Positions 1,838-7,275 of a stretch of DNA of 29,901 nt are shown here, one piece after another (position 1 is the first letter of the stretch; each line of letters starts with the position of its first letter). The notes beneath the pieces are model-generated. The model was not told the origin of the DNA. It did not search any database and saw only the letters and a program-made list of their open reading frames with translations. This stretch comes from Deltaproteobacteria bacterium (GTDB lineage Bacteria > Bdellovibrionota_C > UBA2361 > SZUA-149 > JADYYL01). The position numbers were made by a program, and so were the translations under genes. The stretch is taken from assembly GCA_020853655.1 (NCBI GenBank), contig JADYYL010000268.1, positions 1 to 29,901 on the forward strand, read 5' to 3'.

Positions 1838-3331
1838 CTACGGCGCCGTGCGAAAGGTCGAGGGAGCCGCTGGTGGAGTGGAGTCGCCGGGCGGGGTCCC
1901 TCCGCTCGTCAGACCGATCGTTTCGTTCCCCGTGACATACATGCCCGCCGGGATGATGTCGGTTGTGCTTCCATCACCATCGAGGTCCAGATAGTCAACG
2001 CCCAGCGTGCGGGCCGGCGACGATGTTTGGAGATGATAGTCAGTTCCTCCAACAAATCGCGGATCGGCAACCTGTGACGCCGGCGCTGCGGCATCCTGAT
2101 TGAGAGTGCTTTGCCACGTGGCAAGTGAGCTGAAGTTACCTGAAGCGCTCGCAGCGAACTGACCGTAGCCGAAGAACAGATTGTGCTCCGAATCGTAGTA
2201 AGCGGGGTTCTGGAGTTCCGTGTTGACAACATTCGCCGCGGTGGCGAACGACGCGTTATTGACCATGATGTTGTTCCAGACGACGATCCCCGCGTTCGCG
2301 ATCAAGCCGTTCGAAACCCAGATGGTGTTCTGCGAGCCGACGGACGTGTTGTTTACGATCTTGGCGTGCGCCGGATTGTTCAGGACATTTGTTCCGTCAA
2401 AATTCCAAACGCGCACGGCCGCTTCCTGGCAGTTCCCGAAGAAGTTTTGATGGATGACGATGGGATTCGCTGCATTGTATGGCGCACCGGCGTGTAGCCC
2501 GATGCAACCGCCTTGCTGGACGTTCGCTTTGCCGATGTTGTGAAAGTAATTGTATCGAATGACCGAGCGATGCGTAAGCGCGCTTGAGAACGGCCCCCCT
2601 TTCACGAAGACACCCGCGCCGCATTGGGAGAAGTCGTTGTTCTCGATAATGAAGCCTTCGGACGAATACGTTTTGACGCAGGCGCCGTTAAACGTGTTGC
2701 CAGTCGTGAATATGTTCTGAATTCGATTGTTGCGGATTACAGTTCCAACCGTTTGCTCGATACGGATGCCCGCGTGGTTATCGTTGGCGGAGTTCGAATT
2801 GCCGTTACCGAGAATCGTGAGATTCTGAAACACACAACCCGTCGAACCCCACGAGGTAACCGGTCCCGTATCGGGGCGCGAGGGCGCGAGCGACTCGTCA
2901 ATCGTGAAGCCATCCCAAGTAACGTAGTTCTGGTAGTAGCAGCCGATGATCGGTCCAGCGCCGCTGGTGTACACTAGACTGACCGTACCAACCGCGCGGT
3001 AGGTGACCGGGTTGCCAATCGTTCCCGCATTCTGCGAGTAAAACGCGGGCTCGTTTCGTGTATTTGAACCGGCAGTTGAGTACGTTCCCGCGGAGACCAG
3101 GACCACGTCGCCCGCCTGGGCCGCCTGTGCGGAGACCCGCGCTTCTCGATCCGTGCTCCCCCACGCTGCACGCCCCAATGTGCGCCAAGGATTCGACGCG
3201 TTATTCGCGGCATAGGTGGTGGAATCGTTTCCAATCGCACTGTCGACATAGAGCGTCTTTGCTTCGCTGAGAACTGGAACACAAAATGCGGCGAGGCAGA
3301 ATGTTAGAGCGAGGTACTTCAATAAACTCAT
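1838..3331 (-). CDS. Secreted right-handed parallel beta-helix protein (polysaccharide lyase-like fold), about 497 aa
   Basis: Start reassigned to ATG 3331 (GGAG RBS, signal peptide MSLLKYLALTFCLAAFCVPVLSEA); N-terminal LYVDSAIGND...NPWRTL...AGDVVLVSAGTY motif; Asn-rich IxNNxI repeats; late DPRF...DYHLQTSSPA motif typical of such proteins. Confidence 0.8.
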   Translation of the reverse strand: MSLLKYLALTFCLAAFCVPVLSEAKTLYVDSAIGNDSTTYAANNASNPWRTLGRAAWGSTDREARVSAQAAQAGDVVLVSAGTYSTAGSNTRNEPAFYSQNAGTIGNPVTYRAVGTVSLVYTSGAGPIIGCYYQNYVTWDGFTIDESLAPSRPDTGPVTSWGSTGCVFQNLTILGNGNSNSANDNHAGIRIEQTVGTVIRNNRIQNIFTTGNTFNGACVKTYSSEGFIIENNDFSQCGAGVFVKGGPFSSALTHRSVIRYNYFHNIGKANVQQGGCIGLHAGAPYNAANPIVIHQNFFGNCQEAAVRVWNFDGTNVLNNPAHAKIVNNTSVGSQNTIWVSNGLIANAGIVVWNNIMVNNASFATAANVVNTELQNPAYYDSEHNLFFGYGQFAASASGNFSSLATWQSTLNQDAAAPASQVADPRFVGGTDYHLQTSSPARTLGVDYLDLDGDGSTTDIIPAGMYVTGNETIGLTSGGTPPGDSTPPAAPSTFRTAP

Positions 3332-3621
3332 TGAGGCTCCAGCAAGAGAAAGAGAGAGAGGGGGATCAAATTCACAACGCTTAATTGTCGGCCGATCCGC
3401 TCTTCTGGCATTGCAACAACGAGCGTCGGAGAACGAGGGTGATTGTCTCATGCCGGGAGAGCGCTGTTCAAGCGGATGCCCCTTGGCACAACCCATTTCT
3501 GGGTTTGTAGGAGCGTCACGAGTAGTTAGCCCAGCCCAAGGAGCCTTCACAGAGACGGAAAGGAGAAAGGTTTGAGAGAATCAGCCTAGCACAACCTTTG
3601 TTTTGAAAACCTCTGTGACGA

Positions 3622-3665
3622 TCCGAGAGGGGGATGAGAGCACTATCGCTCCACCCCCTCTCGGA
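3622..3665 (-). terminator. Strong hairpin just downstream of the AAA+ regulator gene, possible terminator
   Basis: Perfect 12-bp arms TCCGAGAGGGGG (3622-3633) / CCCCCTCTCGGA (3654-3665), 23 nt after the stop at 3689; no clear U-run. Confidence 0.45.
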
Positions 3666-3688: not shown

Positions 3689-6061
3689 CTACTTGCCCAT
3701 GCTTATCTGTACGCGTCGGATCTCCGGCCCGAATGTCGCCATCGCATCGAAGACCCAAGCTTCCTCTCTTCCCAAGAGCAATGACTGCTCACGGCGATCA
3801 GTCGTCATTTCTAACGACGCGAGATAAGCCAGAGCACAAAGCTGTCGGATACTGAGCGTTGGAAGTTTAGGCTCATCAGCCCGAACCGGCCTGCGGAGTT
3901 TCTCGTCTTTCTCGAGCCGCTTCCGAACGCTGCTCACCGGCCATCCGAGCTCTCGAGCGGCGCGCTCCTCGCTTCCCTGGTTCTTCGTCAGAGCCCGCCG
4001 AATCGCGAGTCTAAGCAGAACGGGGACATTGAACGTGTGAATCTCGAAGCGTTCGAGAATGAGTGCCTTCCGCTCATCTCTTGAAGGGAGCCCCGATCTT
4101 GCGGGAGGAGCGGGCGGTACCGAAGGGAGTGCCGCTGCCTCCTCTCCCGGAGTATCACCATCGACGTCCGGCGGATCTGCTGGACGCTCAGGTTCCGGGC
4201 TTGGAGCGGGAGGATCGGGATCCGGTCCTCGTGGAGCTGCGTTCGCCTCCTCTCCCGGAGCATCACCATCGACGTCCGGCGGATCTGCCGGAGACTCAGG
4301 TTCCGGGATTGGTGCTGGTGGTTGGGGAGGCGGCGCTGGCGGAGCCGCCGCAGAGGGATCGGGCGAAGCTGTCCGCGGGTCGAAGAGAACTCGAAATCCT
4401 CCGCGATCCGTCACTTTCATTCCGAGTCGCGCCCCCTCATTCAGCATCGCTTGCTGAAGTTGGTCGAGGTGGACCGGAAGATTCCACCGCTCCAAGTCGA
4501 AGGTCGGAACTGCCTCGCCCTCCTTGGCCTGCATCACGCTCACATACCCGTTGGACCTTCCCAAGAGTCTGCACGCTTTCAACTGTTGACCCTCGGACCT
4601 TGCAAGAGCGACGACCAGCGCCATCCTCCGCAACGTCGACATATCCCAGCTTGGGACCCAGTATGGGCCTTCCACCGGGGGAAGGGGAAGCGCCAGAGGA
4701 TCTGCCGCCGAGGCAGTGGCGCGCGTTCGTGAGAGCGGCGTTGCTGGCGTGACACCCGGAACACGAACCATGGTCGTGCCCGTGAGCGCTTGGTCGAGCC
4801 GCGTCGCTTCCGCGGTGACCACGCGATAGAGCTCCCCGTGGTCGACGGGGAGATTCCAGCGCGCGGCGTCCACCTCTGGTAGTGGCGAACTTCGCACCTT
4901 GAACAAGTTGATCACGTATGCGGTTGCGCGTCCGAGCATTCGCTCCGCGCGGTGTTTATTTCCGTTCGACCGGGCGAGCGCAACCGCAACCGCCATCTCG
5001 AACAGCTGCTTCAGATCCCAGGTCGGGATCCAGAACTCCGCGCTCCCATCCGACGGGAGCGGGAGTGGTTGGTCGATAGATGCGGCTTGCGCTGCACCCC
5101 TCGACGCGGGGAGTGGAGGTGGCGCAGGCGGATCCGACCCGGCTGCGCTGGCCTCGTCGGGATGAGTCGCCGCGGTTGTTACGGCGGCATCTTCTTCGTT
5201 GCGGTCCGCGACCGGGGCTGGTGTCGAATCGCAAAACTCCACGCCTTGCGGTGCAGCTGATCTCGCATCGCCCACGTTGGCGAGTTGATCGAGCATCGGT
5301 TCCTTGCCCGGTGCGATGATCGAATCGACATCGATAGTCGACCGACTTTCGCTCAAGAGCACGGCGACCTCCAAAACGCTCACGAGCTCTCGCACCCCAC
5401 CGTTCCACGGGAGGGTTGCGAGGTACTCGAGCGCTTCGCCAGAGAGACGTGCCGATCCGTTGCTCAACGCGTCGACGATATCGCCGGCGATCACCGGGAG
5501 ATCCTCGATATGTTCGTTGAGTGGTGGAACGTCAATGGAGAGAACGCGCAGTCGGTACAAAAGATCGGCGCGAAACGTGCCGGCCTTCACGCACTCTTCG
5601 AGGTTCACGTTGGTCGTTGCGAGGATCCGGAGACCCGTCTCGCCCGTTCCGCCGGCCGTGCGGAGCTCCTCGTCGAAGAGTCCGAGGAGCACCGCCTGAG
5701 AGGCCATCGGAAGGGCTGAGACTTCATCCAGGAGCAACGTGCCGCCTCTCGATTCTCGAAGGATGCTCGCCGGTGAGTCGAACAGCTCGTCTCGCATCCG
5801 GTGCGGATCGAAGAACAGCGAGCACGGAACGACGACAAGTGGACGCTCCGCGCGCGATGAGTTGCGGTGCGCGATTCGAGCCGCGAGCTCCTTCCCCGAT
5901 CCGGTTCGGCCGGAAATGAGGAGAGGTGAGTTCGACGCTCCGTAAAGCTGAAGCAGTCGTGCCACACGCGAAAGTGCTGCGCTGCGGCATCTCTGGAACG
6001 TTGCGATTCCCCGTTCGATAGTCCATCGAACGGGGGCCGTGCTGACGAGCTCGTCCGCCAT
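3689..6061 (-). CDS. Atypical NtrC/Fis-type AAA+ transcriptional regulator (sigma54-interaction-domain-like, GAFTGA-less) with multiple Fis-like HTH modules, 790 aa
   Basis: Walker A GRTGSGKE, Walker B LLLDEV, sensor I RILATTN, FRADLLYRL, WNGGVREL; GGAG RBS upstream of the ATG; C-terminal AIRRALTKNQGSEERAARELG Fis-like HTH plus two related upstream modules. Confidence 0.8.
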   Translation of the reverse strand: MADELVSTAPVRWTIERGIATFQRCRSAALSRVARLLQLYGASNSPLLISGRTGSGKELAARIAHRNSSRAERPLVVVPCSLFFDPHRMRDELFDSPASILRESRGGTLLLDEVSALPMASQAVLLGLFDEELRTAGGTGETGLRILATTNVNLEECVKAGTFRADLLYRLRVLSIDVPPLNEHIEDLPVIAGDIVDALSNGSARLSGEALEYLATLPWNGGVRELVSVLEVAVLLSESRSTIDVDSIIAPGKEPMLDQLANVGDARSAAPQGVEFCDSTPAPVADRNEEDAAVTTAATHPDEASAAGSDPPAPPPLPASRGAAQAASIDQPLPLPSDGSAEFWIPTWDLKQLFEMAVAVALARSNGNKHRAERMLGRATAYVINLFKVRSSPLPEVDAARWNLPVDHGELYRVVTAEATRLDQALTGTTMVRVPGVTPATPLSRTRATASAADPLALPLPPVEGPYWVPSWDMSTLRRMALVVALARSEGQQLKACRLLGRSNGYVSVMQAKEGEAVPTFDLERWNLPVHLDQLQQAMLNEGARLGMKVTDRGGFRVLFDPRTASPDPSAAAPPAPPPQPPAPIPEPESPADPPDVDGDAPGEEANAAPRGPDPDPPAPSPEPERPADPPDVDGDTPGEEAAALPSVPPAPPARSGLPSRDERKALILERFEIHTFNVPVLLRLAIRRALTKNQGSEERAARELGWPVSSVRKRLEKDEKLRRPVRADEPKLPTLSIRQLCALAYLASLEMTTDRREQSLLLGREEAWVFDAMATFGPEIRRVQISMGK
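4137..4307. repeat. Intragenic 63-bp direct repeat (4137-4199 and 4245-4307), period 108 nt
   Basis: 59/63 identical by manual alignment; encodes PEPESPADPPDVDGDAPGEEA and PEPERPADPPDVDGDTPGEEA. Confidence 0.9.
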
Positions 6062-6369
6062 GCTGCACCTCCAATGCCGCCGGAATCAAATGTGATGATG
6101 TAGTTAGAAACCGTAGCTAGGCTGTTTCTCTACAGTGGCGCGTATTGAGGCCCACCGGAGAGAAACGGTGTATCAACTGCTCGGACGGATGGAGAAAGAA
6201 CCGAAGTCAATCGCAATGATGCCGATACTACCAGCCGCGATAGAACAAAGGCCGCGAGCAGGAATGGCGAGCCGGAACGGGGCTCGATCGGAGGAGCGTA
6301 GCGCGGTGGGATTTGTGTTGCAACTTTTCGCGGAATCGAGAGTTCCCGCGGCACCACGTGCGGAGCGGC

Positions 6370-7275
6370 TTAAGCGCGCTCGGCGAGCACGATCATCAAC
6401 GCCCCGACGATCATCGCGCCGGAGACGAGTAACTTGAACGGCTGCGCCTGCTCGCGAAACGCTACGACGCCAAGAAATACCGCGAACGCAATACTGAGCT
6501 GACCGATGGCCGCCACATACGCGACAAGTGTGAACTCGTTTGCAACAAAGTTGAGTTGATATCCGAGTCCCCAGAGGAGAGCGACGGAGAAAGCGGGTAG
6601 TGGGGCGGAGCGTATCATCGCGATCATCGGCACTCGCTTCGCTATGAGTGCAACGGTGAAAAGGACGAGGGAGCCACCCAGAATCAACCCGATGAATGAG
6701 ATCGAGTCGATCATCGGCGCAGCCTTTTTCGTCGTCGTGACGATCGTGGCGAGACAAAGTGAGCAAACGATCATCCAGCGAAGTGCCTGGCTGGACAGAA
6801 TGCTCCTCCATTGGAATTTCTCCTCGCCATCGCGTTCGATGCTCAGCAGGCATCCTCCCCCAACCACGATGACAATCCCAATGAGCGCCTCAATCGTTGG
6901 CACCTCGGACAGAAAGGCCATTCCGAACAGCGCGATGGCCACGGGGAAGAGGGAGCAAAGCGGCATGACGATAGAGAACTCGGCACTGCGGAGCGCAGTC
7001 ATGAACGCCACTTCTGCGGCTACGCTGGCGAGTATTGATACGCCTAAGAAGTACCAGAATGTAGTGGGGTCGGTAATCGCTACTTCCCGCACCTGAAACG
7101 GGTGCACCAAAGCAGCAACCAACACCCCGCCGAGGAGAGTAAGCCAAATGACTACCCAAGAGTCGACTGTGGCGGCGAGATGTTTCTTAAAGGCATCCGC
7201 GCTTGCAAGAAGCACGGAGGACACAAGGGCCAGCACGATACCAGTCATTTGCGTTCTCTTGTCGGTCCTTGTCAC
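6370..7275 (-). CDS. EamA/DMT family transporter (start may be ATG 7248)
   Basis: About 10 hydrophobic segments in two repeats; motifs AFMTALRSAEFSIVMPL...FGMAFLSE and VAYVAAIGQLSIAFAVFLGVVAFRE. Confidence 0.85.
   Translation of the reverse strand: MTRTDKRTQMTGIVLALVSSVLLASADAFKKHLAATVDSWVVIWLTLLGGVLVAALVHPFQVREVAITDPTTFWYFLGVSILASVAAEVAFMTALRSAEFSIVMPLCSLFPVAIALFGMAFLSEVPTIEALIGIVIVVGGGCLLSIERDGEEKFQWRSILSSQALRWMIVCSLCLATIVTTTKKAAPMIDSISFIGLILGGSLVLFTVALIAKRVPMIAMIRSAPLPAFSVALLWGLGYQLNFVANEFTLVAYVAAIGQLSIAFAVFLGVVAFREQAQPFKLLVSGAMIVGALMIVLAERA

Follow-up and report, generated by a model that had tools for sequence, protein, structure and literature searches.

The question raised by a 29,901-nucleotide (nt) stretch of a deltaproteobacterial metagenome-assembled genome (MAG; positions 1–29,901 of contig JADYYL010000268.1 of assembly GCA_020853655.1, henceforth called the window) is what kind of protein is encoded by P0001, a gene at positions 3689–6061. 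A first-pass annotation made from the sequence had described the product as a AAA+ regulator with three to four tandem Fis-like helix-turn-helix (HTH) modules and had recognized no known family in this architecture. We find that P0001 encodes a protein in which a sigma-54-activator-type AAA+ core that has lost its GAFTGA loop is joined to a long tail with three predicted HTH-type modules and a degenerate fourth, and that this architecture is nearly unique. We propose, with confidence that we would put at about even, that P0001 is an ATP-dependent, sigma-54-independent DNA-binding regulator in which module 3 would serve as the anchor and modules 1 and 2 would supply further contacts or a surface for a partner. 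All coordinates are those of the window, and P0001 and every part of it lie on the minus strand.

The reading of open reading frames (ORFs) in the window gives P0001 as an uninterrupted frame of 790 codons, for a product of 790 amino acids (aa), with the stop codon at 3689–3691, and the genome search returned the same open frame. The AAA+ core and lid occupy aa 26–248 (5318–5986), as seen from Pfam matches to Sigma54_activat (PF00158; aa 26–176, e value 2.9e-25) and AAA_lid_14 (PF25601; aa 184–248), from a paralog alignment and from the Aquifex NtrC1 ATPase (1ny6), which is the nearest solved structure to the core (e value 1.6e-31). P0001 retains Walker A (GRTGSGKE), Walker B (LLLDEV), the arginine fingers (FRADLLYRL), and sensor II (VREL), and K57, D112/E113, R164, R170, and R224 do not vary when it is aligned with three paralogs from its own genome. 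In the same alignment an 11-residue gap in P0001, located in the L1 loop at aa 92–100 (5762–5788) between ELF and DSPASI, takes out the GHxxGAFTxA segment, for which the three paralogs hold GAFTSA, GAFTGA, and GAFTDA. Because these three paralogs keep a GAFTGA-type loop, its loss looks specific to P0001, and because GAFTGA is among the defining features of a true sigma-54 activator, P0001 does not qualify as one. The MAG encodes rpoN (Sigma54_DBD, e value 3.3e-63, on contig C195), and an AAA+ query of the MAG returned nine further matches besides P0001, so that at least ten activator-type AAA+ proteins are encoded in it.

P0001 matches many NCBIfam models of NtrC-family equivalogs, all of them below threshold, and is therefore an ortholog of none of them. 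Its nearest core homologs in a database of 5.8 billion proteins are generic NtrC-family response regulators that are approximately 35–43% identical. An ortholog of the AAA+ core was absent from the five related genomes searched, in which the long ORF matches are membrane-PAS-AAA+-HTH activators with GAFTGA or GSFTGA loops. The core of P0001 begins after 25 aa. A Shine-Dalgarno-like GGAGG, read from the sequence, lies at 6068–6072, 6 nt 5' of the start codon (ATG at 6061), upstream of which the frame continues for only eight codons; given this start site and the few codons preceding it, P0001 has no room for an N-terminal sensor domain.

The first-pass annotation had placed about 540 aa after the AAA+ domain and had divided them into modules, two of them duplicates of about 80 aa, separated by long Pro/Ala-rich linkers. 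Counted past the end of the lid near aa 248, the tail comprises 542 aa. It opens with linker 1 (aa 249–335; 5057–5317), which is acidic, Ala/Pro-rich, and predicted to be disordered. Module 1 (aa 336–434; 4760–5056) is predicted to consist of an FWIPTW strand, a three-helix Fis-type core (aa 347–392), the motif RWNLPV, a long helix, and a C-terminal strand, and module 2 (aa 462–558; 4388–4678) is its duplicate. Aligned over 103 aa, the regions aa 332–434 and 459–558 are 40% identical (e value 2e-23) and share 42 invariant positions. The duplication was thus correctly recognized but the size of the unit was underestimated: because the helix and terminal strand past RWNLPV are included in the repeat, it measures approximately 100 aa rather than 80. 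Linker 3 (aa 559–659; 4085–4387) has 35 Pro in 101 aa and an isoelectric point (pI) of 4.1, and the long linkers are accordingly present as described, with the added feature that they are acidic. A 108-nt tandem repeat at 4137–4345 (1.9 copies, 84% matches) lies within linker 3, where it gives rise to a recurring acidic, Pro-rich unit of 36 aa; this repeat is unchanged in an independent wastewater contig. Module 3 (aa 660–727; 3881–4084) and module 4 (63 residues, aa 728–790; 3692–3880) complete the protein. An hmmsearch with a profile of modules 1 and 2 recovered module 3 at an e value of 3.6e-4 and, weakly, module 4 at an e value of 0.054; the two alignments share one register and open at variants of one motif, aromatic-x-P/H-T-aromatic/Leu (FWIPTW, YWVPSW, FEIHTF, and KLPTL).

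Module 3 is a canonical, basic, Fis-type HTH as judged by sequence profiles. The region in which a canonical third HTH had been suspected (approximately 3908–4050) contains a Pfam HTH_8 match (PF02954) at aa 686–718, corresponding to 3908–4006, whose score of 24.8 bits exceeds the cutoff of 22 (24.4 bits in a six-frame search). The module also matches the NtrC DNA-binding domain (1ntc) with an e value of 0.013 and, in hhalign, a reference profile of the HTHs located at the C-termini of the nearest AAA+ homologs with a probability of 96% (P value 2.8e-9). It has a pI of 11.3 and an RKRL recognition helix, the RK-x-L pattern of which is also kept by P0003, the distant metagenomic relative of the tail that is described below. 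Module 4 is acidic (pI 5.3). The suggestion of a degenerate fourth HTH at approximately 3730–3860 holds insofar as the module shows the weak in-register similarity already mentioned, including LPTL in register with IPTW, a P value of 1.5e-3 against modules 1 and 2, and conservation in P0003; its identity as an HTH does not hold, with an hhalign probability of 1.3% against the HTH profile. Statistically module 4 is no HTH, and by these profile comparisons the defensible count is three HTH-type modules plus a degenerate fourth.

Comparison of each module with HTH_8 had been proposed as a check, and in this comparison modules 1 and 2 both fall below the cutoff that module 3 exceeds, yet hhalign aligns them with the HTH reference profile with a probability of 87.6% (P value 3.5e-6) over 48 columns that span all three helices; in 200 column shuffles that served as a control, the top probability was 6.5%. 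The ESM Atlas clusters closest to modules 1 and 2, whether judged on features or on structure, all belong to the HTH_8 or HTH_50 families. An AlphaFold2 (AF2) model of the module, built from a three-row alignment and of low confidence, begins and ends with a strand, between which lie three helices followed by a short and then a long one. Residues 12–57 of this low-confidence model, which correspond to aa 347–392, superimpose on the DNA-binding domain of NtrC1 (4l5e) at 1.5 Å over 46 of 46 residues and on Fis at 1.3–1.5 Å. The match to 4l5e ranked first among 48,161 chains with a Z score of 5.1, which is low for a small helical domain; the structural scores are small in absolute terms because the domain has only 45 residues. 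Taken together, these profile and model comparisons support the assignment of modules 1 and 2 as diverged Fis/NtrC-type HTHs with a family-specific extension. The original description of Fis-like HTH modules is therefore supported for module 3 by Pfam and for modules 1 and 2 by profile-profile alignment, the Atlas neighbors and the model, and it is not supported for module 4. The HTH cores of modules 1 and 2 have pI values of 10.9 and 9.8, respectively, and their C-terminal extensions are acidic to neutral, with pI values of 4.6 and 7.2. A prediction of the complex between modules 1 and 2, which addressed the speculative idea of an intramolecular Fis-type pseudo-dimer, scored 0.11 and was counted neither way, and an AF2 prediction of the whole protein from the single sequence was unusable with a predicted local distance difference test score (pLDDT) of 38.

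Two other matches in this region were set aside. The RWNLPV motifs (4820–4840 and 4445–4465) weakly resemble KWDLPVDYP of the Ros/MucR protein 2jsp, probably by chance; a Ros/MucR zinc-finger reading of the motif was rejected because the e value was 0.28, no Cys/His ligands were aligned, and no Pfam model matched. A match of module 1 to the lysozyme-like SLT_3 model was disregarded (e value 0.013, well under the cutoff).

P0001 is a real gene that is maintained in a wastewater lineage. Sequence words from P0001 are present in more than 10 studies of wastewater or activated sludge dating from 2015 to 2025, and contigs from three DNA runs match it at 99–100% identity. Contigs covering 5142–5374 and 4854–5205 overlap and bridge the junction of AAA+ domain, linker, and module 1; an independent contig covering 4006–4419 takes in the end of module 2, the linker repeat, and module 3 with 0 differences; and further contigs run from module 3 through the stop codon at 99–100% identity. 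Across the four runs examined, only nt 4420–4853 of P0001 remain without independent cover. Of four strain variants in P0001, three are synonymous. The 3' end of the gene also appears in a metatranscriptome contig, which hints at transcription, although DNA carry-over may explain it.

We then asked how widely the architecture is distributed. The phylum of the MAG is small, and among the 124 species-representative genomes searched the tail was absent from the other 123. When 1.84 billion cluster representatives were searched with a profile, the only matches were the query itself, P0003 (e value 3.6e-10), a weak match to P0004, and one spurious match; P0005 is such a spurious low-complexity match. 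No further relatives of the tail were found in the word-indexed database of 5.8 billion proteins, in 40 relatives, in contigs of GTDB representatives, or in JGI metagenome contigs. Exactly one HTH is present in 118 of the 119 nearest AAA+ homologs and more than one in none, and the 11 HTH_8 matches that a six-frame search found in the MAG each lie in a separate ORF. A literature search on tandem HTH_8 or duplicated Fis-like architectures yielded nothing relevant to the design of P0001. The architecture, for which the first-pass annotation had recognized no precedent, corresponds to no described family in these protein, genome, metagenome, and literature searches, and it is nearly unique, being confined to one wastewater lineage and one distant metagenomic relative.

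That relative, P0003, is a 345-aa protein encoded on a 1525-bp contig from a Logan run and is a homolog of the tail without a AAA+ domain. Its single module-1-type unit (29% identity) is followed by approximately 97 aa of acidic, Pro-rich spacer and then by modules 3 and 4 (37% identity), so that the order of units is conserved at 28–37% identity overall. Because P0003 is preceded by approximately 330 nt of DNA that is apparently non-coding, it is not a truncated fusion, and because it has the unit order without the ATPase, the tail is a cassette that is able to stand alone. From the arrangement of the two proteins, P0001 may be described as this cassette joined to an ATPase with its first unit doubled, and two members fix neither fusion nor fission as the direction of the event. 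P0004 (L010:803-1633) is an unrelated metagenomic protein of 276 aa with three stretches that match Pfam HTH_8 (e value 1.6e-20), and its likeness to the modules is limited to the HTH core; with P0004 at hand, tandem arrays of Fis-type HTHs are not unprecedented outside the P0001 family. Three small ORFs without a family match lie 5' of P0004.

P0001 stands alone in the window, approximately 308 bp from the upstream gene, which encodes an EamA-type transporter (6370–7275), and approximately 357 bp from the downstream gene, which encodes a secreted protein. A 226-aa ORF on the minus strand (6173–6853) overlaps the 3' part of the EamA gene in another frame, has no family match and is probably spurious. 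The downstream ORF (1838–3550, minus strand) has no Pfam match; its sequence suggests that the product is secreted and contains Asn/Gly-rich repeats of a beta-helix-like kind, and because a clear signal peptide begins at approximately residue 74, its true start is probably near nt 3331 rather than at the GTG at 3550. Directly past the stop codon of P0001 lies an inverted repeat with 17-nt arms that are 88% complementary (3622–3665, unstranded), which is possibly a terminator hairpin without a T tract; a terminator scan found no consensus terminator near P0001. The word GAGAGGGGGAT within this inverted repeat occurs again at 3356–3366. The window holds no match to the -24/-12 consensus with fewer than two mismatches, and those with two show no clear enrichment. 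In PHROGs and PADLOC searches the locus gave generic HTH and RtcR/PspF-type AAA+ matches and no sign of a phage or defense context.

How might a protein of this kind work? If P0001 behaves as its relatives do, it would assemble as an ATP-dependent oligomer. It would bind DNA mainly via module 3, the sole unit whose recognition helix is canonical for HTH_8 and basic, and, by the precedent of TyrR, the NtrC proteins of Rhodobacter and Caulobacter, and VpsR, it could regulate sigma-70-type promoters or remodel another DNA-bound target. Modules 1 and 2 would be basic HTH cores closed by a clasp made of the WxPxW strand, the RWNLP motif, a helix, and a strand, and they would most likely add lower-specificity DNA contacts that either increase avidity or let one oligomer reach several sites over its tethers. 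Because there is no sensor domain, we propose that activity is set by the expression level of P0001 or by a partner acting in trans.

A number of observations weigh against this proposal, most of them against DNA binding by modules 1 and 2. With the HTH_8 cutoff at 22 bits, module 2 scored 13.7 bits (e value 0.052) and module 1 gave no match, and the AF2 model of the module has a pLDDT of just 60. The third, or recognition, helix is the least conserved stretch among module 1, module 2, and the P0003 module, and in all three it does not have the basic RK-x-L patch of HTH_8; with recognition helices that are so little conserved and so poor in basic residues, DNA binding by modules 1 and 2 is not secure. 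The residues that are invariant in all three copies lie in the WxPxW strand, in the AL...G...A.R..G core, and in the RWNLP motif and the helix that follows it, a placement that would suit a protein-binding or structural role equally well. These arguments from conservation draw on two family members and are correspondingly thin. At the locus, scans for promoters, sigma-54 promoters, and operator repeats around P0001 gave nothing above chance and identified no target promoter, and the neighbors of P0001 point to no regulon, merely to a loose cell-exterior theme. On balance the data for modules 1 and 2 fit a low-specificity DNA contact or a repurposed interaction surface alike.

These same features are what speaks for a different assignment, in which modules 1 and 2 derive from HTHs but serve in protein interaction or regulation. 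They could take the place of the absent sensor domain by gating the ATPase in cis, or they could recruit a partner, and only module 3 would touch DNA. The invariant positions fall outside the recognition helix (WxPxW, RWNLP, and L/E/R of the extension helix), helix 3 has few basic residues and is different in each of the three copies, the extensions are acidic to neutral, and both modules are under the Pfam cutoff. The HTH cores are nevertheless basic, their predicted fold and register match those of DNA-binding Fis/NtrC domains, and no partner gene is evident near P0001, and we consider this assignment unlikely, although the most probable of the alternatives. The idea raised in the first-pass annotation would make P0001 an oligomeric ring that displays 18 or more HTH units, three or more per subunit, on tethers of approximately 100 aa and acts as an ATP-driven bridging, looping, or nucleoid-organizing machine, with P0003 as its ATPase-free counterpart. 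Such a multivalent motor would be in keeping with the long Pro-rich spacers between three HTH-type modules in each chain, with a spacer before module 3 that is nearly equal in length and acidity in P0001 and P0003, and with the intact ATPase motifs. One would expect a nucleoid protein to occur widely, however, and P0001 is missing from the 123 other genomes of the phylum and from the scan of GTDB representatives; moreover, there is no indication that P0001 is abundant, and module 4, and possibly modules 1 and 2, may not bind DNA. We regard this possibility as distinctly improbable.

It could also be asked whether the tail does anything at all. An ordinary atypical NtrC-like regulator, or one that is decaying, might have acquired it as a neutral, lineage-specific elaboration through duplications and low-complexity growth, and P0001 does look the part in being a near-orphan known from one species and one distant metagenomic relative, with a recent 108-nt tandem duplication in a linker, a degenerate module 4, and a AAA+ core that is at most approximately 40% identical to any homolog. 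Set against this are the intact frame of 790 codons, the conservation of unit order in P0003 at 28–37% identity, and the stability of P0001 across samples of 2015–2025, in which variation is mostly synonymous. In addition, the two duplicated modules still share 42 invariant positions at an identity that has fallen to 40%, which argues for the long retention of both, and we consider a neutral tail very improbable. An assembly artifact, in which a chimeric MAG contig fuses a AAA+ gene to an unrelated HTH protein, is brought to mind by the fragmented state of the MAG, which comprises 498 contigs and is 72% complete, and by the existence of the tail elsewhere as a separate gene. Contigs from other runs cross both the AAA+/module 1 junction and the stretch from the end of module 2 through linker and module 3 to the stop codon at 99–100% identity, and the reading frame is continuous; we give an artifact practically no credence.

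Should the extra modules of the proposed sigma-54-independent regulator bind DNA, an NtrC-type AAA+ motor could be rewired from sigma-54 to a multivalent DNA-binding tail, the range of atypical enhancer-binding proteins would be wider, and the WxPxW strand and RWNLP clasp would be the marks of a new, extended Fis HTH subtype. A looping or bridging motor, if P0001 were one, would represent a mode that is undescribed for the enhancer-binding-protein lineage. The practical impact is limited, given that P0001 is confined to one uncultured wastewater lineage and one distant relative.

Among known systems, P0001 resembles Escherichia coli PspF in having the AAA+ core near the N-terminus, no regulatory domain in cis, and a C-terminal HTH_8, a layout that implies control in trans. 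PspF keeps GAFTGA, activates sigma-54 promoters, and has one HTH on a short linker. P0001 differs from PspF in the absence of GAFTGA and in its several HTH-type modules, and no PspA-like partner is seen near it. Modules 1–3 resemble the domains of Fis and NtrC (4l5e, 1ntc, and 1fia) in their predicted three-helix HTH_8 core; unlike these domains, modules 1 and 2 have an extra WxPxW strand and an RWNLP-helix-strand extension of approximately 45 aa and do not have the basic patch in the recognition helix, and no dimerization helices like those of Fis and NtrC were identified. The two metagenomic proteins with similar modules both differ from P0001 in lacking a AAA+ domain; P0003 moreover has one module-1-type unit instead of two, and P0004 has neither the WxPxW/RWNLP extension nor Pro-rich spacers. 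A further parallel is offered by the regulators without GAFTGA, namely TyrR, NtrX, VpsR, and the NtrC proteins of Rhodobacter capsulatus and Caulobacter, which act without sigma-54 and are expected to do so at sigma-70 promoters (10.1101/2023.06.06.543975). P0001 shares with TyrR/PhhR, R. capsulatus and Caulobacter NtrC, Vibrio cholerae VpsR, and NtrX an AAA+ domain of the enhancer-binding-protein type in which the L1 loop is deleted or replaced, as well as a Fis-type HTH. It has no close sequence kin in this group, its core being at most approximately 40% identical to any homolog. Members of the group have an N-terminal receiver or an ACT/PAS sensor and a single C-terminal HTH, whereas P0001 has no sensor and spreads three to four HTH-type modules with long Pro-rich spacers over 540 aa. 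In combining the loss of the sensor with several HTH-type modules, P0001 departs from every described atypical relative.

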